Source: an uncultured Gammaproteobacteria bacterium
GTDB taxonomy: Bacteria; Patescibacteriota; Patescibacteriia; UBA9934; GWF2-40-263
Reading direction: 5' to 3'
DNA length: 64,000 nt
Assembly (NCBI GenBank): GCA_964402425.1
Contig: CAYOCD010000001.1
Location: 163,442-227,441, forward strand
The translations under genes were made by a program, and so were the position numbers. The number at the start of each line of letters is the position of its first letter. The first letter of the stretch is position 1. The notes beneath the pieces are model-generated. The model was not told the DNA's origin, made no database searches, and saw only the letters and a program-made list of their open reading frames with translations. Below, one piece after another: positions 20,291 to 56,400 of this stretch.

Positions 20291-20418
20291 TATAAAACAT
20301 TCAAAGTGAGATGCATCGCGCTGTGCTGGAGGAGAAAAATCTTTGAGTCGTAGACAGACCTACGGCGAAAAGATTTTTCTCCGAAGCGCAAGCGAGGCGC
20401 TCATTTTGAATGTTTTAT
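20291..20418. repeat. Palindromic MITE-like element copy A (about 128 nt): 19/20-bp terminal inverted repeats around a GC-rich core with a nested 14-bp perfect hairpin
   Basis: TIRs tataaaacattcaaagtgag / ctcattttgaatgttttat. Inner ggagaaaaatcttt...aaagatttttctcc with cgtag/ctacg at the centre. Abuts the tRNA-Met 3' end. Confidence 0.6.
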
Positions 20419-20494
20419 GGTAGCTGGAGAGGGGGTCGAACCCTCGACCTCGGGCTTATGAGTCCCGCGCTCTAACCAACTGAGCTACCCAGCC
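20418..20494 (-). tRNA. tRNA-Met (CAU), elongator type, CCA encoded
   Basis: Minus-strand GGCTGGGTAGCTCAGTTGGTTAGAGCGCGGGACTCATAAGCCCGAGGTCGAGGGTTCGACCCCCTCTCCAGCTACCA. Cloverleaf folds with anticodon loop CUCAUAA, T-loop TTCGACC, and 1-72 / 7-66 G-U pairs. Confidence 0.9.
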
Positions 20495-20621
20495 GTAAAA
20501 ACTTTCAAAATTGGCGATCTTTCGGCTTGCGCTCCGCGCGCTCCATCGAAGGGCATTTAAGCCCATCTCCGTCGCATGCTCGCGCTACACCGAAATCTCA
20601 TCCAATTTTGAAAGTTTTTAC
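20495..20621. repeat. Palindromic MITE-like element copy B (about 127 nt): perfect 20-bp terminal inverted repeats around a GC-rich about 87-nt core
   Basis: gtaaaaactttcaaaattgg ... ccaattttgaaagtttttac. The core shares gagcgcaagc and tgagat blocks with the reverse complement of copy A. Abuts the tRNA-Met 5' end. Confidence 0.6.
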
Positions 20622-20652
20622 ACTTACATTCATTGGATGAGCCTTGATTGTA

Positions 20653-20738
20653 TGGTGCCGACAGTGGGACTTGAACCCACATGAGTTTCCCCACACGATT
20701 TTGAGTCGTGCGCGTATACCAGTTCCGCCATGTCGGCC
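20653..20738 (-). tRNA. tRNA-Leu (CAA), long variable arm, CCA encoded
   Basis: GGCCGACATGGCGGAACTGGTATACGCGCACGACTCAAAATCGTG...GGGTTCAAGTCCCACTGTCGGCACCA. Same architecture as E. coli tRNA-Leu; anticodon loop CUCAAAA. Confidence 0.9.
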
Positions 20739-20791
20739 TATTAAGGTAGCGATAAGATATCAAAATCACAAAAAAATGTCCAGCGGCTAAG

Positions 20792-20820
20792 TTGACGCAT
20801 TTATTCAGATCCTGTATAAA
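20792..20820 (+). promoter_or_regulatory. Sigma-70-type promoter for initiator tRNA (TTGACG-17 nt-TATAAA)
   Basis: ttgacg catttattcagatcctg tataaa, with the tRNA 5' end about 19 nt downstream. Confidence 0.7.
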
Positions 20821-20838
20821 TATCACGCTAGGTTTTAC

Positions 20839-20915
20839 CGCGGGGTAGAGCAGCCTGGCAGCTCGTCGGGCTCATAACCCGAAGGTCATTGGTTCAAATC
20901 CAATCCCCGCAACCA
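20839..20915 (+). tRNA. Initiator tRNA-fMet (CAU), CCA encoded
   Basis: CGCGGGGTAGAGCAGCCTGGCAGCTCGTCGGGCTCATAACCCGAAGGTCATTGGTTCAAATCCAATCCCCGCAACCA. C1:A72 mismatch and three G-C pairs in the anticodon stem (GGG/CCC) are bacterial initiator hallmarks. Confidence 0.9.
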
Positions 20916-44858: not shown

Positions 44859-45194
44859 TTATGTTTTGATTTCGACATCGACACCTGCTGGGAGGTTTAA
44901 ACTCATCAGAGCATCAATGGTTTTGTCTGTTGTTTCTGTGATGTCGATAATGCGTTTATGAACACGCATTTCGAACTGATCACGAGAATCCTTATGAACG
45001 AAGGTGGAGCGGTTAACGGTGTATTTCTTCTTCTCTGTTGGAAGAGGAATTGGACCAATCACTTTTGCTCCCGAACGCTCGATTGTTTTTAAAATTGTTT
45101 CTGTAGCTTGATCAATGATCTTGCTATCATACGCACGAATTTTAATACGCAAGCGAGGTTTGTCTTCTTGTTCTTTTTTTGTTGTATTCGTCAC
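44859..45194 (-). CDS. rpsJ: 30S ribosomal protein S10
   Basis: Order and sequence match. Confidence 0.95.
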
Positions 45195-45250
45195 AATAAT
45201 GAAAGAAAGAACGATGTGTAAGAGGCGAAAAGCGCCCCTTACACGTTAAA

Positions 45251-46444
45251 TTACTTGATAATTTTTACAACGATTCCAGCTCCAACTGTTTTTCCACCTT
45301 CACGAATTGCGAAGTTCATCTTTTCTTCCAAAGCAACAGGGTGAATGAGTTTAACAGTTGCGCTAACAGTATCTCCAGGCATAACCATTTCTGTTCCTTC
45401 TGGAAGAACAACTTCACCTGTTACGTCTGTTGTACGAACGTAGAACTGTGGCTTATACCCCTTAAAGAATGGTTTATGACGTCCACCCTCTTCTTTTGTA
45501 AGAGCGTAAATTTCTGCTTCGAATTCTGTGTGAGGTGTAATGGATCCTGGTTTTGCAAGAACCATTCCGCGCTCTACATCTTCTTTCTTGATTCCACGAA
45601 GCAAGATTCCTGCATTGTCTCCAGCAAGACCTTGTGACAAAGACTTGTTGAACATTTCGATTCCTGTAACGATTGTTTTTTGTGGTTCTTCATGGATTCC
45701 GACCAATTGAACTTCATCGTTCAAATTGATGGTTCCGCGTTCAATACGTCCTGTTACCACTGTTCCACGTCCTTCAATAGAGAAGACGTCTTCAATTGGC
45801 ATGAGGAGTGGCTTGTCTGTTTCACGAACGGGTTCTGGAATATAGGAATCAAGTGCTGCAACGATATCCATGATGCACTTTGATGCTTCTGCATCTGTTG
45901 GGTTGTTGAGTGCCTTAAGAGCTGATCCGCGAATAACAGGCACTTCGTCACCTGGGAATTTGTATTTTTTCAAAAGATCGCGAACTTCTTCCTCAACAAG
46001 ATCAATAAGTTCTGGATCATCCACCATGTCAACTTTGTTTAAGAAGACCACCATGGCAGGGACTCCAACTTGGTGTGCAAGCAAGATGTGCTCACGTGTT
46101 TGTGGCATTGGTCCGTCTGCAGCTGATACAACCAAGATCGCACCATCCATCTGAGCAGCACCCGTAATCATGTTCTTGATGTAGTCCGCGTGTCCTGGAC
46201 AGTCCACGTGAGCGTAGTGACGCTTTTCAGACTCATATTCACAGTGGGCAGTAGCGATGGTAATTCCACGAGCTTTTGACTCTGGAGCTTTATCCAAATC
46301 GTCCATTCCCTTTGTTTGTGCAGCAAGTCCTCTCGCACCCAAAACGGCGAGGAGGGCAGCTGTTGTTGTGGTTTTTCCGTGGTCAACGTGACCAATGGTT
46401 CCAACGTTAACGTGCGGCTTGGTGCGCGCAAATGCTTCTGCCAT
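45251..46444 (-). CDS. tuf: Elongation factor Tu
   Basis: [18 protein letters not shown]. 397 aa. Confidence 0.97.
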
Positions 46445-46556
46445 AGATATGAGAAAGGGCTAAGTGCCCAAAATTAATTTTTGCTTATTTTATCGAAAAG
46501 AGTTGGCCTTTCGAGACAGGCGAAAGTATAGCAAACCCTTTAAAAACATGCAAGTC

Positions 46557-47075
46557 TTACTCGATCGGTTCGAGATAAAACTGTTCTTCCCCAAATTCAT
46601 CCTCATTTTCCTCTAATTTAGGCGAAATTTCTTTATTTACGGCTTCCGAACTTATTTCTGACAAGTGGGGCAACTCTGGCTCCTGTGTATACTTTTTATA
46701 TTGCTCTTCAAGATCTATAACTTCATCTTCTGACATTTTTGTCAGATCCCAGGTTTCACCATCTTCACCAGCTGGTTTCATACTAGCCCAAATGTCTGAT
46801 GATTTTTCCCCATGAGGAATATCCTCTTTCACTGATACTGCAACTTCACCTTCCTCAACCCAACTCACATCATTTGGAAAGCTAGAAGTGGGAGGAAGAT
46901 GGCTCTCAAGATCACTTAGCTCTGTTTCTGGGTCGAAAAACTCAGTATTTCTGAGGTTTTCATACTGATCGAGCCCCATAACCACGTAAACGTCTTCCCC
47001 ATTTGGGTCTGTGACGATCATGGTGTCCCCTGTTTTCTGCACAAGGTTCAAGATGCGTTTGAGCTGATCTTTCAT
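46557..47075 (-). CDS. Acidic hypothetical protein with an N-terminal Phd/YefM-antitoxin-like fold segment and a long Asp/Glu-rich tail
   Basis: MKDQLKRILNLVQKTGDTMIVTDPNGEDVYVVMGLDQYENL resembles Phd/YefM N-domains. The alternative TTG start at 47111 overlaps the upstream kinase stop in a TTGA arrangement. Confidence 0.5.
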   Translation of the reverse strand: MKDQLKRILNLVQKTGDTMIVTDPNGEDVYVVMGLDQYENLRNTEFFDPETELSDLESHLPPTSSFPNDVSWVEEGEVAVSVKEDIPHGEKSSDIWASMKPAGEDGETWDLTKMSEDEVIDLEEQYKKYTQEPELPHLSEISSEAVNKEISPKLEENEDEFGEEQFYLEPIE

Positions 47076-47107
47076 ATGAGCGCATTTTAGTTGATTTCGA
47101 CCTTGTG

Positions 47108-48136
47108 TCAAGCGTCTTTTGTAATGATTTTCTCAATAATTTTGCGCTTTTTCAAATAATCTTTAAACTCCGTAATTTGTCCGTTTGTACGAGCGAGATT
47201 ATGCGCTCGTCGAGATGGGTATCGAGAAGAATCCCAACCAAAATAGGTGTCCTCGAAATAATCTGTCATAAATCGGCAAGCAAGTTCGAGGGTAATCGTG
47301 CCAATAGCTTTACCAATGTATTTTTGCTCTGTTTTCTTTAAAAACGAAGCATTTGATCGATACCCTTTCCAGGCGGCACGAAATAACGGAATCGAAAACC
47401 TATTTTTTGAATCATCTTCCCCACCACCACACCAAGAACGAAATGCATCTCCAAGCTCAACAAGAACAGGTCGATGATTCACCGTATCGAGATCAACAAG
47501 AGCTTTCGCCTTCCCTGCCGCATCAAACAAAATATTTGAAATTTTTGGATCCCCATGAATAACCCGCAAAGGAATTGTTTTTGGCAAAAAAAATTTTGGA
47601 GTCTGCTCGAGAAGAAACACGACATCATCAAGCACATCAAACATAAGTTCTGAATCACGATACATCTCAACCGTTTGTCGAAATGTTTCGAAAATCTTTT
47701 CTGTATCATGCAAAACTTTTTTTGATTGAAATATATACGGCATGTTTACAACCGTTTCATGAAATCGCGCATAGATCTTCCCCGCTTCCATCGCCATCTT
47801 TGCATCCTTTAATAAGGAAATGGTTTTTCCGGGAATATATGTTTGTACACGCCACTTCCATTCCCCATCATCAACGAGTACCTCACCTGTTTTCGAAAGA
47901 ACACATTCAGGTGCAAGAAATTTTTCTTCCTTTAAATACTTCGTCACAGCCAAAAAATCCTTCGCAATTTCCGGTGACGCAAGTACCGGGTGCAAACGTT
48001 GAATGATATACTGTTTGCGATCATTCTTTATGAGAAATGTTTGATGAATAAGTCCGCTTGCGAGTTGTTTTGTTGTGACAACGTGATCAAACCCGAATGC
48101 CTTAAACACTTTTTTTGGAATCATATGTTTTTTCAT
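47108..48136 (-). CDS. Aminoglycoside-phosphotransferase / choline-kinase-like (APH superfamily) kinase
   Basis: Brenner motif HGDPKISNILFD and DLD (VDLDTV); 342 aa. Confidence 0.75.
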   Translation of the reverse strand: MKKHMIPKKVFKAFGFDHVVTTKQLASGLIHQTFLIKNDRKQYIIQRLHPVLASPEIAKDFLAVTKYLKEEKFLAPECVLSKTGEVLVDDGEWKWRVQTYIPGKTISLLKDAKMAMEAGKIYARFHETVVNMPYIFQSKKVLHDTEKIFETFRQTVEMYRDSELMFDVLDDVVFLLEQTPKFFLPKTIPLRVIHGDPKISNILFDAAGKAKALVDLDTVNHRPVLVELGDAFRSWCGGGEDDSKNRFSIPLFRAAWKGYRSNASFLKKTEQKYIGKAIGTITLELACRFMTDYFEDTYFGWDSSRYPSRRAHNLARTNGQITEFKDYLKKRKIIEKIITKDA

Positions 48137-48667
48137 TATTTTATTCTCGGGATCATCGGTATTGGTTCAAGTATTTATCTTATTCATGCAACACGAGAGT
48201 TGATTCGTGTCATGATTCCAACAATTGCAGGCGGTGGAATCTTTGTCGGAACACCCGCTGTGGCAATTGCAACCATGATTGAACTCGCCGAAATAAAACC
48301 AACGGATATCGTCATGGATCTTGGAAGTGGCGATGGTCGATTACTGATCGCGGCTGCAAAAGCTGGTGCAAAAAAATCGATTGGCTATGAGATTCAACAT
48401 TGGCTTGTTAAACAATCTCGGGAGTTGGTCGAGAACGAACATTTAAAAGACAAAATTGAAATACATCCTGATTCATTTTGGCATGTAGATGTATCGAACA
48501 CAAATCTTGTTCTGCTCTATCAAATTTCATACGCCATGAAAGGGATTGAAAAGAAACTACAAAAAGAATTACCAGTCGGCGCAAGAGTGGTTGCGAATGG
48601 ATTTAAATTTCCAAAGTGGAAAGAGGAAAAAACGATTGATAATGTTCGACTCTATATCAAAAAATAA
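48125..48667 (+). CDS. Class I SAM-dependent methyltransferase with N-terminal TM helix
   Basis: Motif I VMDLGSGDGRLLIAAAKAGA. Start at MFFHYF overlaps the divergent kinase start by about 12 nt. Later ATGs at about 48212 or 48275 are alternatives. Confidence 0.6.
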   Translation: MFFHYFILGIIGIGSSIYLIHATRELIRVMIPTIAGGGIFVGTPAVAIATMIELAEIKPTDIVMDLGSGDGRLLIAAAKAGAKKSIGYEIQHWLVKQSRELVENEHLKDKIEIHPDSFWHVDVSNTNLVLLYQISYAMKGIEKKLQKELPVGARVVANGFKFPKWKEEKTIDNVRLYIKK

Positions 48668-48842
48668 ATTCAAATGTTACAGACATCACTCTTGTAAATG
48701 ATCTCAATGAGGTAATTGGAGCAAAAGATATTTATCGCATCACAATCCTTTGAGTCACAAATTCGTAATAGGATCTTTTTCTTTGATCTTGTGATGATTA
48801 TGTACGGAAACAATCGATTGGCACAAAATATTCGCGTAAACA

Positions 48843-48874
48843 AAAACCGAGACTTATGAGTAGTCTCGGTTTTA
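48843..48874 (-). terminator. Rho-independent terminator downstream of the SPFH gene
   Basis: aaaaa-ccgagact-tatgagt-agtctcgg-tttt. Confidence 0.75.
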
Positions 48875-48885
48875 GATATATTCCT

Positions 48886-49638
48886 TTACTTTGCACCATC
48901 TCCCTTCATAAACGAAACGGCCTCTTGTACGGTTGTCATAAACTGTGCAGGAAAAATAATTGTGGAATTTTTCTCTACACTAATCTCTGCCATTGTTTGC
49001 AATGTTCTCAACTGAAGTGCAACTGGATGAGATGCAATGATGTCTGCCGCTTGTCCGAGTTTCACCGCCGCCTGAAACTCACCTTCCGCTGCAACGATTT
49101 TTGCACGGCGCTCACGTTCCGCTTCCGCCTCCTTTGCCATCGCGCGTTGCATGTTCTCCGGTAAGAAAATATCTTTAATTTCTACAACAGTTACCTGAAC
49201 TCCCCATGGTTCTGTATGAGAATCAATAACGTTTTTAATTTGCGAATTGATTGCTGCCGTTTGAGATAACACTTGATCCAATTCAAATTGCCCAATAACA
49301 TTACGAACGGTTGTTTGCGAAATTTGGTTTACCGCTTCATACACATTCTCAATTGCCAAAACGGATTTTGTGGAATCAACCACGTGATAATACGCCACAG
49401 CCGCAATGTCGATCGAAACATTATCTTTCGTGATAATTTTTTGTGACGGAATGTTCATGGTAATTGTTCGCAATGTCACCTTCGTCATTTGCTCAAGGAT
49501 TGGAACAAGAATGATCAAACCAGGACCACGCACACCCGTACATTTTCCAAGAAAAAAGATCACGCCACGATCATACTCTTTTACAACACGCAGTGAGAGA
49601 CTCAGAACAATTAAGGTGGCAAAAATGATGAAATACAT
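48886..49638 (-). CDS. SPFH/Band-7 (stomatin/prohibitin-like) membrane protein
   Basis: N-terminal TM, SPFH core, C-terminal coiled coil [27 protein letters not shown]. Confidence 0.85.
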
Positions 49639-49734
49639 ACAAATTTATTAACGAATAAACAATGAATACATAACTCTTCATATCTTCATCTAAAAACTCC
49701 CGATACGCAAGCATGCTTAAAACCGAATAGGGCC

Positions 49735-49777
49735 TTTTAAAAAAACATCTCGACAATTTCGAGATGTTTTTTCTTTT
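49735..49777 (-). terminator. Bidirectional terminator downstream of fusA
   Basis: aaaaaaa-catctcga-caatt-tcgagatg-ttttttctttt. Confidence 0.75.
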
Positions 49778-49778
49778 C

Positions 49779-51878
49779 CTAGTTTCCAACGCGTCGGTTT
49801 TGACCTCCACGCTTTTCGATAATTTCTTTTGCAACTCCGCCTGGAACAGCGTCGTAGTGATCAAATTCCATGGAGTAACTTGCGCGACCTTGGGTCATGC
49901 TGCGAAGCGTTGTTGCGTAGCCGAACATTTCTGCGAGCGGAATAAACGCGAGGATAACTTTTGCTCCTGAGCGGTCTTCCATACTTTGAATTTGTCCGCG
50001 CTTTGCGTTCATGTCTCCAACAACGGATCCCATGAAGTCTTCCGGGGTAACGGCTTCAACTTTCATGATCGGCTCCATAAGTTCCACACCAGCTTTCTTG
50101 GCCGCGTCTTGGAATGCCATAGATCCCGCGATCTTAAAGGCTGCTTCTGAAGAGTCGACATCGTGGAATGAACCATCGGTTAAGATAACTTTAACATCCA
50201 AAAGTGGGTATCCAGCAAGAACTCCGCGATCTGCAGCTTCATGCGCACCTTTTTCAATTGGGTTAAAGAACTCTCTTGGAACAGATCCACCTTTGATTTC
50301 TTCTTCGAATTCGAATCCGGATCCTGGTGGCAATTTTTCGATACGCACAACCGCGTGTCCGTATTGTCCCTTTCCACCTGTTTGACGAACGTATTTTCCT
50401 TCTCCTTCCGCGTTTCCTTTAATAGTTTCGCGGTAAGAAACTTGTGGAGTTCCAACGTTACAATCAACCGAAAACTCACGCTTCATACGATCCACAATAA
50501 TGTCCAAGTGCAATTCTCCCATTCCGGAAATAATAACTTGGTTTGTCTCCTCGTCCGTACGAACGCGGAAGGTTGGATCTTCTTCAGCCAATTTTTGAAG
50601 AGCAACTCCCATTTTTTCTTGGTCGCCCTTTGTTTTTGGCTCAATAGCGATAGAGATAACTGGTTCTGGGAACACAATTGCCTCAAGCAAAATTGGGTTT
50701 TCAGGATCACAAAGTGTGTGACCAGTAAATGTTTCTTTAAGTCCTACCATAGCCGCAATTTCTCCGGCATAGACTTCTTGAACTTCTTCACGTGTGTTTG
50801 CGTGCAAACGAACGATACGTCCGACACGTTCTTTTGCTCCGTTTGAAGAGTTCAAAATGTAGGTACCTGCTTTTACGGAACCAGAGTACACACGGAAGAA
50901 GGCAAGCTTTCCAACAAATGGATCCGCTGCGATCTTAAACGCAAGTGCTGCAAATGGTTCAGAGTCAGACGAATGACGATCGATAACTTTTTCATGATCA
51001 TCTGGGTCTGTTCCGTGAAAAGACGGAACATCAAGCGGGCTTGGCAAGTAAGCAACGACCGCATCCAACAAAAGTTGAACACCTTTGTTTTTAAGCGCGG
51101 AACCACACATGATTGGAATGAATTCGTTTGAAATGGTTGTACGACGAATAACAGGATTCATTTCTGCTTCTGTAATGAATTCACCTGCCAAATACTTTTC
51201 CATCAACTTTTCATCATTCTCACAAACAGCCTCAACGAGAATAGTTCGGTATTCTTCTGCTTTTGCCTTGTATTCTTCTGGAATGTCTGTTTCCTCTACT
51301 TCACGTCCCGCTTCATCGCGATACATGAATGCACGCATCTTCAACAAATCAATAATTCCGTTGAATCCACCTTCTGTTCCAATTGGAAGTTGGATGCAGT
51401 ATGCACGCTTTGTTAAACGATTGTGAACAGAAGCAACATCTTTATAAAAATCTGCTCCTGTGCGATCGAGTTTATTGATGAACACAATGCGAGGCACTTT
51501 AAAATCATCCGCATAGCGCCAGTTTGTTTCAGATTGTGGCTCCACTCCGGCAACACCATCAAAAACAGCAATTCCTCCGTCCAAAACACGCATGGAACGC
51601 TTCACCTCAACGGTAAAGTCGATGTGTCCTGGAGTATCGATCAAGTTCAATTGATGATCTTTCCAAAAACAGGTTGTTGCAGCGGCTGTAATGGTAATTC
51701 CACGTTCCTTTTCTTGTTCCATCCAGTCCATGGTTGCAGCACCTTCGTGCACTTCACCAATTTTGTGTTTCTTTCCTGTATAAAAAAGCACGCGTTCAGA
51801 AACGGTTGTTTTTCCCGCATCAATGTGGGCAAAAATTCCGAAGTTACGAACGTCTTGCAATGGGTATTCTCTAGGCAT
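49779..51878 (-). CDS. fusA: Elongation factor G
   Basis: [17 protein letters not shown], five-domain length of 699 aa. Confidence 0.97.
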
Positions 51879-53105: not shown

Positions 53106-56100
53106 CTACTGCAGGAGTTGCGTCGGCAATCCAGGGAACATGTTGAGACCGTCTTTGAGAACACGCTCGACATCGACCTTCGTCTTCCCCACCTTGCGAT
53201 AGAGACTGATTTTGGTCGAACCATTCCCGGGAATCACATGACACCACCAGGGTTCGCCTGCATTCGGGTACCGGGACAGATCGTCGCCATAGGGAGCATC
53301 GACAAGCTCGCGCTTGTACTCTGCAACCATGGTTCCGTTGCCGCGATCTCTGAACGTGAGGCAAACAACTTCACCCGATGTCACTTTTCGCTTGAGGTCA
53401 TCAACAAATGCGAGTTCGGCTTCAAGAGCCTTCTTCGCCTCGTCGAGTTCCGCAAGCCAAATTTCAATAAGCTCTTTATCTTCCACAAGTGACCGTGGAA
53501 GCCGGATCACATTTGAACGAACCACAACGCATTCTTCGCGATCAATGCGTTGACGTTCAATACGCGCCGCATTTTCACGCTCCAGCCGTTCAACGATCTC
53601 CGCATATCGCCGCAGTTCATTCGGCGCCGTCGTGAGATCAAACGCGTTCGTGCTATTCACACGCACACACGTAATCTCACGCTGATTACTATCACGGAAT
53701 TCCATCCGCTTTCCGCCCGAGTAATCGAACACGTACCCAAGGGCACGCACACGAGCATCGAGCACGGCGAACTCTTCGCGTAGTGGAGCGAATTCGGCTT
53801 GCGCCTTTTCGCGCGCCTTGCGCGTTTCTTCTTCGCGACGAGCATGCTCTGCGGCCACCTCACGTTCACGCTGCAGTTCTGCCGCGTGTTCCGCTTGGTA
53901 CGCCTTGAGCGCGTCGCCTGTGAGTATATCTTCTGACGTTATGGTGTTCATCGCAGCGACAACGAGTTCAGGTGTGGATTCCGCCACAATCTTTTTCGCA
54001 ATCGCTTTCGTGAACTGATCCACATACGGCTGAATGCGCTTGCGGCGCTCTTCTCCATAAACATACAACGCACTCGTCGGAAAATTCTGCTGCCACAGCT
54101 TTGCGAGCTGCGGTGCATTATTAACGAAAAACCCAAACCCGTCCGAAAGCTGCATTGCAACCAAAGCGGCAATGGACGGAATGAGCGTTTCCGGAATCGT
54201 CTCCAAGGTTTTACGCTCGAGTTCGATTCCGTTCCAGGTGCGACAACAAACGAACATCTCAGCACCGCTCGAGAAAATATTTTCTCGTGCCACACTAACC
54301 ACAGTCTTACACGCTTCCACCGGAACAAGTTCCGACAACCATTTCTCGTCAATCGCATGACATCCGTGCATGTAGGTTTTGGTTCCACGATCGCTCGTGG
54401 TTCCCATTGCCTTCGTGCACACAAGCAATTCCGGCGGATCATCTCCAAACAGCGCAGAGCCGGGAGAGATGAACGTCGTGCGATCGTTCCAGGAATAATT
54501 GAACCGCCCAGACTTCTGAGCGATATTCACAATGAGCCCCGAGGCAACAGCCTTGCGGAGCTTGAGGGAATCTTGCGACGACGAATAGGTAACCCCTTCC
54601 TGCTCGAGCGTGCTCATCAGTTGATCGCGCAAACGATCCACCTGAGTGAGCGCACGAGACGAAAGGAAATTCTCCCTCGCCCACCGATGATCTCCGTCGG
54701 TCCGGTCCCAGTCCCGCCACACCTTGAGAAAAGTGAGCAAGTCCGAGTTCGGATCGTCAAAGCCTTTCTTCGCCCGACGAGCTTCTTCACGCTTGTCCTT
54801 CGGAGCAACGAAGATCGGCCTCGTGCCGGCAAGGCACGCAGCGATCGTGATCACTTCATCGAGACATTCGTGCCGTTCGCCCTCGAGAATCATGCGCCCA
54901 ATCATCGGCTCCACATGGAACCGCTTCATCCGCATGCCATCCTTCGTGACCTCGCCGTCCGCATCGAGCGCACCGAGCAGCTTCAGACGCGTTTCCGCAT
55001 CCTTCCACTGCACAGTCTTCGGTGCATCCATGAGATCTAGGGCGAGAATTTCCGAAAGCGTATACTTCAGGCAGCGCAAATCCAGGAGCACTTGATCGAG
55101 CGACATGCGCAGGATCTCGGGCTTCGTGAACGCCACGCGGCTTTCGAAATCTTCCTGACTGAACAGACGATGGCAGATGCCATCTTGAGTTCGACCCGCC
55201 CGGCCCTTACGCTGATCGCAACCGGCACGAGAGTGCTCGGTGACTTGCAGCGCAGACATCGACGCATCCACGTACACCGTTGCCTTGATCTGTCCAGAGT
55301 CGACCACGTGTCGAACTCCGTCAATCGTGAGCGAGGTTTCCGCGATGTTCGTCGCCACAATGATGCGGCGGCGACCATCCACCTTGAACACTTCTTTCTG
55401 ATCATCCGGCGCCTGCGAGCCGTAAAGCGGCAGGAACCGATAGCGCGACAATTCGCGTTCCTTTTCCTTCTCGAGAGCATTCACGACTTGCGTGATGCTT
55501 GCTTGATCAGGGAGAAACGCAAGAATGTCGCCCGGCTCATTGTTGTGCAAGATCTCGAGAATCTTCTCGATCATTGCCTTGACCATGTCGCCGCTCTCCG
55601 GCGTCTCCTTCGCGTAGCGGACCTCGACCGGGAAAACCCGACCAGGAACCGTGAGCACAGGAGCGTTGCCGAAGTACTTCGAGAACTTCTCCGTATCGAT
55701 CGTGGCCGACATGACCACAACCTTGAGGTCTGCACGCTTCGGGAGCACGCTCTTCACGAGCGCCATGAGAAGGTCTTGATTCACGCCGCGCTCATGCACC
55801 TCGTCGAGGCAGATGACGCTGTAGCGATGAAGAAGCGGATCCGAATGGAGCTGGTTCAGCAGCACACCTTCGGTGATGTACGCGAGTCGCGTTTCATCTC
55901 CGAGCATACGATCCTGTCCAATCTGGTAACCCACCACAGCCCCGAGATCGGTGCCGTAGAGTTCAGACACCCAGTCTGCGAGCATGGTCGCAGCCGGCCG
56001 CCGAGGTTCGGAAACCCCGATTAGCTTGTGGCTACCGAGTCCGGCCCGCAAAAGCGCGAGCGGACCCTTGGTCGACTTTCCCGCGCCGGTTTGGGCGGCG

Positions 56101-56180
56101 AGAATGACAACCTGGTTTTTACGAACAAGGTCGAGAAACTCGGCCTCATATGCATCAAACGGAAGAATGAGTTCAGACAC
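53106..56180 (-). CDS. DEAH/RHA-family ATP-dependent helicase (HrpB/HrpA-like) with an uncharacterised about 440-aa C-terminal extension; visibly GC-rich gene
   Basis: Motif I AQTGAGKST, II LDEVHER, V TNIAETSLTIDGV, VI QRKGRAGR, then HA2/OB-like. The C-terminal half is rich in coiled-coil/charged segments. GC is clearly above flanks by eye. Confidence 0.8.
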   Translation of the reverse strand: MSELILPFDAYEAEFLDLVRKNQVVILAAQTGAGKSTKGPLALLRAGLGSHKLIGVSEPRRPAATMLADWVSELYGTDLGAVVGYQIGQDRMLGDETRLAYITEGVLLNQLHSDPLLHRYSVICLDEVHERGVNQDLLMALVKSVLPKRADLKVVVMSATIDTEKFSKYFGNAPVLTVPGRVFPVEVRYAKETPESGDMVKAMIEKILEILHNNEPGDILAFLPDQASITQVVNALEKEKERELSRYRFLPLYGSQAPDDQKEVFKVDGRRRIIVATNIAETSLTIDGVRHVVDSGQIKATVYVDASMSALQVTEHSRAGCDQRKGRAGRTQDGICHRLFSQEDFESRVAFTKPEILRMSLDQVLLDLRCLKYTLSEILALDLMDAPKTVQWKDAETRLKLLGALDADGEVTKDGMRMKRFHVEPMIGRMILEGERHECLDEVITIAACLAGTRPIFVAPKDKREEARRAKKGFDDPNSDLLTFLKVWRDWDRTDGDHRWARENFLSSRALTQVDRLRDQLMSTLEQEGVTYSSSQDSLKLRKAVASGLIVNIAQKSGRFNYSWNDRTTFISPGSALFGDDPPELLVCTKAMGTTSDRGTKTYMHGCHAIDEKWLSELVPVEACKTVVSVARENIFSSGAEMFVCCRTWNGIELERKTLETIPETLIPSIAALVAMQLSDGFGFFVNNAPQLAKLWQQNFPTSALYVYGEERRKRIQPYVDQFTKAIAKKIVAESTPELVVAAMNTITSEDILTGDALKAYQAEHAAELQREREVAAEHARREEETRKAREKAQAEFAPLREEFAVLDARVRALGYVFDYSGGKRMEFRDSNQREITCVRVNSTNAFDLTTAPNELRRYAEIVERLERENAARIERQRIDREECVVVRSNVIRLPRSLVEDKELIEIWLAELDEAKKALEAELAFVDDLKRKVTSGEVVCLTFRDRGNGTMVAEYKRELVDAPYGDDLSRYPNAGEPWWCHVIPGNGSTKISLYRKVGKTKVDVERVLKDGLNMFPGLPTQLLQ

Positions 56181-56275: not shown

Positions 56276-56400
56276 AAAATGGTTCGGTTTTATCGAACAA
56301 TCGTACAAAAACTCAGACGAACTTCGCCTAATTTTTGACGGATAACTATATCACAAAAATGCACTTTTGTCAAGTGTTTACGGGGACTTTTTGTATTTTT

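Follow-up and report, generated by a model that had tools for sequence, protein, structure and literature searches.

Phd/YefM antitoxins (PF02604; YefM, PDB 2a6q) are, by sequence, the described family closest to the small acidic protein considered here, which is encoded directly upstream of tuf in a stretch of 64,000 nucleotides (nt) from contig CAYOCD010000001.1 (assembly GCA_964402425.1), hereafter the window. Toxin-antitoxin (TA) systems are sporadic and fast-evolving, and some of their toxins act on the translation apparatus: Doc, the natural partner of Phd, phosphorylates EF-Tu, and HipA and Doc both phosphorylate translation components. A second set of described systems offers an analogy of mechanism only, since they have no sequence or fold relation to the small protein, i.e., the SSB tail (DDDIPF), the archaeal and eukaryotic ribosomal P-stalk tails, and the acidic tail of the RNA polymerase delta subunit. 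All of them combine an oligomerising N-terminal domain, a long acidic disordered linker, and a short conserved acidic or aromatic tip at or near the C-terminus, and the P-stalk tails bind translational GTPases.

The comparison of the window with related loci leads us to propose, with somewhat better than even confidence, that two independent gene modules abut at this place and that the small protein represents a tuf-linked family derived from the Phd/YefM fold and equipped with a presumed docking tip. One module would be formed by fusA, a divergent lysine-methyltransferase-like gene, and a NahK-like sugar kinase gene, which would stay downstream of fusA, and the other by the small acidic protein gene and tuf. 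The features of the second module are the following, lengths being given in amino acids (aa) and AF2 standing for AlphaFold2:

46557..47075, minus strand: small acidic protein gene, 172 aa, ATG at 47075, stop TAA at 46559..46557 (identical database protein P0001; 87 homologues)
47084..47111, minus strand: predicted promoter of the small gene, -35 box TTGACA at 47111..47106, 16-nt spacer, -10 box TAAAAT at 47089..47084
46944..47075, minus strand: N-terminal domain of the small protein, residues 1-44, Phd/YefM-like (Pfam PF02604, AF2, hhalign)
46680..46796, minus strand: central motif of the small protein, residues 94-132, DIWxxMKPAGxxGETWD plus a helix (family alignment, AF2)
46560..46595, minus strand: C-terminal peptide of the small protein, FGEEQFYLEPIE, residues 161-172 (family alignment)
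46525..46553, minus strand: predicted tuf promoter, -35 box TTGCAT at 46553..46548, extended -10 box TGCTATACT at 46533..46525 (sequence pattern)
45251..46444, minus strand: tuf (EF-Tu, 397 aa), conserved in its place downstream of the small gene

On the minus strand of the window, tuf is followed by rpsJ, rplC, and more ribosomal protein genes. The linkage of the small gene was surveyed with one genome per species in 80 loci, nearly all of them from records titled Uhrbacteria or Patescibacteria, which were annotated by tblastn and were retrieved in part with the pattern EEQFYLEP. In 71 of the 72 species loci with enough sequence, tuf follows the small gene at a distance of 45-298 nt, the sole exception being due to a 1.4-kb insertion. 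Thus, the placement beside tuf, which an earlier sequence-only reading of the window had singled out as notable, was borne out for the small protein. Even where no fusA is present within 5-6 kb upstream (14/55 loci), the small gene still adjoins tuf. At 50% identity the family comprises about 300 clusters; it spans at least 93 species and is vertically inherited, in a fixed position upstream of tuf, in Uhrbacteria and related Patescibacteria. Both the small protein and the kinase encoded upstream of it have identical entries in the database, which come from Candidatus Uhrbacteria / Patescibacteria assemblies. Many records with a Patescibacteria-type locus (L014, L015, L021, L024, and others) are titled 'uncultured Gammaproteobacteria bacterium', and they are probably mislabelled third-party metagenome bins.

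The region upstream of the small gene contains the first module together with an additional gene:

47108..48124, minus strand: APH-fold kinase, 338 aa from ATG 48124 (342 aa from the alternative ATG 48136) (Pfam APH, E-value (E) 6e-21)
48125..48667, plus strand: divergent methyltransferase, 180 aa, with an N-terminal hydrophobic helix (NCBIfam NF041081, E 6e-26; Pfam PrmA/DOT1)
49638..48886, minus strand: SPFH/Band-7 gene, between fusA and the methyltransferase gene
51878..49779, minus strand: fusA (window gene order)

The order of an APH-family kinase, the small acidic open reading frame (ORF), and tuf, on which the sequence-only reading had built a possible kinase-partner pair, is real in the window, but the pair itself did not withstand the co-occurrence check: of 66 species loci, only 11 have the kinase gene immediately before the small gene, 8 have it 1.2-5.4 kb upstream, and in 47 it is not in view. 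Its companion is rather fusA, which is located upstream of the kinase in 16 of the 20 kinase-bearing loci, with the divergent methyltransferase gene between them in 14, and a methyltransferase-kinase pair follows fusA in many Uhrbacteria. Two loci found from kinase homologues illustrate the separation of the modules, since in L090 the series fusA-methyltransferase-kinase is followed by unrelated genes and no tuf, and in L091 two genes on the opposite strand intervene between the same series and the small gene with tuf. In turn, nine loci have the end of fusA no more than 700 nt before the small gene, with nothing between them in seven and the methyltransferase gene in two, and the methyltransferase is present without the kinase in four loci. 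Because the kinase stays with fusA and the small gene with tuf, the adjacency seen in the window is explained as the meeting of two separately anchored modules.

The methyltransferase and kinase genes are arranged head-to-head with no spacer, or with a 12-nt overlap if the kinase begins at 48136, and the same arrangement is found in L001, L004, L090, and L091. The methyltransferase matches the NCBIfam model of archaeal protein-lysine N-methyltransferases given above, and a lysine methyltransferase encoded between fusA and tuf could act on the elongation factors. The SPFH/Band-7 gene is missing from the closest relatives (L001, L010, and L012), and it was apparently inserted into the str operon in a lineage-specific event.

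The assignment of the kinase to the APH family is sound (75.7 bits in Pfam, with a cut-off of 23.2). The only significant solved relatives of the kinase are N-acetylhexosamine 1-kinases (NahK, PDB 4wh1 and 4ocj; E 1.3e-24), to which it aligns essentially over its full length (residues 18-326), including the HGDxKxxN catalytic loop and the metal-binding DLD, so that IHGDPKISN and VDLD of the kinase pair with THNDTKLNN and IDLD of NahK. Identity to NahK is low. The kinase homologues are also 338 aa long. NCBIfam gave only weak matches, far below threshold, to its models of homoserine kinase and of a Ser/Thr protein kinase (PRK11768); at JGI, the homologues are named automatically after a COG label, 'Ser/Thr protein kinase RdoA (MazF antagonist)'. 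Searches of Pfam and NCBIfam yielded only APH-type families, no HipA_C or Fic/Doc domain appeared in these or in PDB and PADLOC, and there is no protein kinase or toxin kinase among the solved relatives. Therefore, the idea of a toxin kinase similar to Doc or HipA was abandoned; unlike these toxins, the kinase of the window has an APH fold close to that of NahK, and it is best read as a kinase of a sugar or another small molecule.

These data also bear on the explanation from which the analysis started, i.e., a coupling of the APH kinase with the Phd-like protein, in the manner of a toxin and its antitoxin or of an enzyme and its regulator, with EF-Tu as a possible target. The same-strand adjacency of both genes in the window and in 11 species representatives, the Phd/YefM-like N-terminus of the small protein, and the RdoA label of the kinase homologues would speak for it. 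However, the absence of the kinase upstream of the small gene in most of the species, its association with fusA and the methyltransferase, the variable spacing and the promoter found between both genes (see below), the restriction of its solved relatives to sugar 1-kinases, and the lack of any PADLOC match and of any viral or mobile context make such a pair hardly credible.

The extension of the small gene had to be revised. It had been read from a TTG at 47111 as a protein of 184 aa, translationally coupled to the kinase through a TTGA overlap. The identical database protein has 172 aa and begins at ATG 47075, all the 87 homologues align to the small protein only from this Met, and conservation sets in exactly there (MxDQxKRIL...). 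The supposed TTG start opens TTGACA, the -35 box of the small gene, whose first base is at 47111, and the kinase stop codon (TGA, 47110..47108) falls within this box. The start codon is located 32 nt after the kinase stop, a distance that reaches about 400 nt in relatives where both genes are adjacent. Since the ATG start is conserved, the gap is variable, and the overlap belongs to the promoter, translational coupling is unsupported.

The TTGACA-16-TAAAAT element is the best sigma-70-like site in the region 45100-50000, with 11/12 matches, and one of only two sites of this quality in the 64-kb window. The other one, TTGACA-17-TATAGT at 56373 on the minus strand, lies 164 nt upstream of the start of a helicase ORF. 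When the family loci were anchored on the ATG, a match of at least 10/12 was found in 63 of 82 distinct loci, versus 2 of 445 control windows; the TTGACA box is exact in 60 of these 63 loci, and the end of the -10 box lies 8-10 nt from the ATG in 45 of them. In the window, the -10 box ends 8 nt upstream of the ATG, and hence a leader of only 0-2 nt is predicted, which implies that the mRNA of the small gene would be leaderless or nearly so.

A second predicted promoter, composed of TTGCAT and an extended -10 box, directly follows the stop codon of the small gene. Of 75 spacers separating the small gene from tuf, 74 contain the extended -10 pattern TGnTAnnnT, versus 19% of shuffled spacers. There is no terminator-like site between the two genes, nor room for one in the window, and thus, transcripts of the small gene should run into tuf and the S10 operon. 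In this arrangement tuf would be served by tandem promoters, and the small ORF would be the leaderless first cistron of the longer transcript. As for the 5' leader of tuf (46445..46524), no Shine-Dalgarno sequence is visible in it, and it contains a hairpin, GGGCACTTAGCCC, at 46457..46469 on the minus strand, about 12 nt before the tuf ATG, that recurs as TTTGGGC...GCCC in many related loci. An Rfam scan of the window detected three tRNAs only and no known leader or riboswitch near tuf.

The N-terminal domain of the small protein links it to the antitoxins. Residues 2-44 match the Pfam profile PhdYeFM_antitox (PF02604) with E 4e-6 and 26.9-27.1 bits, below the cut-off of 29.8 bits, and the same sub-threshold match was obtained in 32 of 35 family members and in 7 of 7 distant members. 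Therefore, the resemblance noticed by the sequence-only reading is seen by profile methods too, consistently but below the Pfam cut-off. The 44 residues align to the core of helix 1, strand 2, strand 3, and helix of these antitoxins, e.g., the segment TMIVTDPNGEDVYVVMGLDQYENL aligns with a 23-residue segment of YefM, and in both cases a disordered C-terminal part comes after the fold. Two AF2 models agree on a helix at residues 2-15, strands at 18-22 and 29-33, and a short helix. The match covers positions 10-51 of the 74 of the profile and starts at about position 10 every time, which indicates that strand beta1 is absent.

The differences from the antitoxins are also clear. The alignment made with hhalign between the family and E. 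coli YefM, whose sequence was checked against PDB 2a6q, places TMIVTD opposite PILITR, and thus, Arg31 of YefM corresponds to the invariant Asp23 of the family. A passage of PMC4803016, citing Bailey and Hayes (2009), gives Arg10 and Arg31 as essential for the binding of YefM to its operator. The position equivalent to Arg10 is variable in the family. In addition, the small gene has no adjacent toxin gene and is inherited at a fixed place next to tuf, and the C-terminal half of its product presents a new set of motifs that is not of the known toxin-binding helix type. Membership in the Phd/YefM antitoxins failed on the four features tested, i.e., domain score and completeness, adjacent toxin, DNA-binding residues, and mobile distribution. 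The small protein looks like a domesticated, cut-down version of the antitoxin fold, as far as profiles and models allow us to judge.

If the domain had kept the ability to bind DNA, the small protein might be an autoregulator of the tandem promoters, acting on its own gene and on tuf. Besides the Phd/YefM likeness and the position of the gene between two conserved promoters, the conserved basic residues of helix 1 (R7, conserved in 90% or more of the members, and K/R at positions 13-14) would agree with this role. Nevertheless, the Asp in the place of Arg31, the missing beta1, and the isoelectric point (pI) of 4.1 make it less likely, and the place of Arg10 is not conserved, the net charge of the protein is about -32, no conserved palindrome was evident by eye in the anchored promoter alignments, and the invariant C-terminal peptide would be left without explanation. 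Taking these data together, we consider autoregulation improbable.

The domain likeness might also suggest an orphan antitoxin whose toxin, similar to Doc or YoeB, would be encoded elsewhere in the genome, an idea made attractive by the fact that EF-Tu is the target of the natural partner of Phd. Such a role is very unlikely for a gene whose place on the chromosome is the same in at least 93 species representatives and whose product has an invariant C-terminus, at odds with the sporadic and fast-evolving nature of TA systems. No toxin-like gene was seen in any of the 89 related loci, the absence of an adjacent RelE/Doc-type toxin reported by the sequence-only reading was confirmed among the neighbouring ORFs of the window, and neither the small protein nor the kinase gave any match in viral contigs or in the defence-system models of PADLOC.

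The region that follows the N-terminal domain is as acidic as it had been described (the whole protein has a pI of 4.08, and 45 D/E versus 13 K/R), but it is not a featureless tail, since it contains a central motif in the closer clade and a near-invariant C-terminal peptide. In the central motif, the residues W96, M99, A102, T108, and W109 are nearly invariant in the family alignment (A1), and AF2 predicts a helix at 116-131 with a predicted local distance difference test (pLDDT) score of about 88, the linkers being of low confidence. This motif is restricted to the closer clade (46 of 80 species loci) and follows the clade, with no link to the presence of the kinase or the methyltransferase.

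The C-terminal residues E163, E164, F166, Y167, L168, E169, and P170 are invariant in the same alignment. The proteins end in (D/E)xGEEQFYLEP(I/V/L)(E/D), and the peptide is present in 89 of 89 loci, a figure biased in the genome-scan set by a retrieval pattern that included EEQFYLEP itself. The motif was re-checked by a search free of word index, which gave 296 clusters at E <= 1e-10 and 135 new representatives; FYLEP appears within the last 15 residues in 114 of these 135, and the others are fragments or contain the variants YYLEP, FFLEP, or FYFEP. At the codon level, all six codons of Leu, all four of Pro, and both of Glu, Gln, Phe, and Tyr are in use in the motif. With its synonymous sites saturated, the peptide must be held by selection at the protein level, and for the same reason a DNA or RNA constraint at the 3' end of the gene, where the tuf promoter begins 3 nt past the stop, was rejected.

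A circular permutation, in which the C-terminal peptide would supply the missing beta1, was also considered and is not supported, since neither AF2 model forms a strand there. The permuted constructs scored 27.3-30.2 bits with the Pfam Phd/YefM profile, compared with 29.5 for the native domain and 28.5-28.9 for scrambled controls, and in three of four constructs the profile coverage did not extend into beta1, the best one reaching only position 8.

In the searchable literature, no description of the small protein family or its motif was found, nor anything relevant on the tip EEQFYLEP(I/V/L)(E/D), on Uhrbacteria in combination with EF-Tu, or on leaderless in combination with Patescibacteria.

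On these grounds, a model can be drawn for the tuf-linked protein. The N-terminal domain would dimerise after the manner of the Phd/YefM domains, and the flexible acidic tether would offer the C-terminal peptide to a highly conserved partner, to which the central Trp-rich motif would also be offered in the closer clade. We infer dimerisation, the docking of the tethered peptide, and the identity of the partner. That the partner should be very conserved follows from the eight residues fixed across lineages whose EF-Tu differs by up to about 25%. The leading candidate is EF-Tu or the translation apparatus, because the junction of the small gene with tuf stays while the upstream region is reshuffled; we put this candidate forward tentatively, at a probability well short of even. 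The most specific form of the model, in which an antitoxin fold gave rise to a lineage-specific protein that partners EF-Tu or the factor-binding site of the ribosome, is unlikely, at something like a quarter of our belief. According to it, the EEQFYLEP peptide of the dimer would bind EF-Tu and regulate, sequester, or recruit it, and the small protein would be made together with EF-Tu from a shared leaderless transcript.

Alternatively, the docking partner of the C-terminal peptide might lie outside translation, with RNA polymerase, a chaperone or protease, and the division machinery as examples; the small protein would then be a polyanionic adaptor for which the linkage to tuf provides only high, growth-coupled expression. 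The architecture, which parallels by analogy those of the RNA polymerase delta subunit and the SSB tail, and a strong promoter, which suggests an abundant protein, are compatible with this proposal, as is the known persistence of unrelated genes inside ribosomal operons. On the other hand, a junction kept in 71 of 72 species while the upstream region is reshuffled suggests more than passive residence, and no positive evidence points to any specific alternative partner. We regard such an adaptor as possible, on the unlikely side.

Some observations weigh against the interpretation of a tuf-linked, antitoxin-derived docking protein. The fold searches of both AF2 models against PDB were not significant, with YefM chains ranking first and third at E of about 0.45-0.47, so that the fold assignment is carried by sub-threshold sequence profiles; a profile search of PDB with the family alignment gave nothing meaningful either. 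The promoters and the leaderless start come from consensus prediction rather than from mapped 5' ends. A shared growth-coupled expression, as for secY, adk, and map in the spc operon, may be all that the linkage to tuf reflects, and a physical interaction is not required. To these must be added the retrieval bias already mentioned for the C-terminal motif.

Other elements of the window deserve a brief description. An HrpA-like DEAH helicase gene (53106..56180, minus strand), with the Pfam domains DEAD, Helicase_C, HA2, and OB_NTP_bind, is located upstream of rpsL in a region of about 56% G+C, compared with about 42% for the window, and a gene of this type also neighbours rpsL in L001 and L009. 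Three tRNA genes lie at 20418..20915, two of them for tRNA-Met (CAT), which are on opposite strands and flank one for tRNA-Leu (CAA).

The conserved consensus promoter with its leaderless start provides a useful annotation rule for Uhrbacteria-type genomes. Since the invariant peptide would be carried on a disordered tether, the partner of the small protein can be sought directly with a 12-residue peptide. This undescribed family would exemplify the domestication of an antitoxin fold, turned into a core gene that is vertically inherited and tied to tuf expression, and, if the docking on EF-Tu or the translation apparatus is true, the small protein would be a previously unknown accessory protein of translation factors in the bacteria of the Candidate Phyla Radiation.

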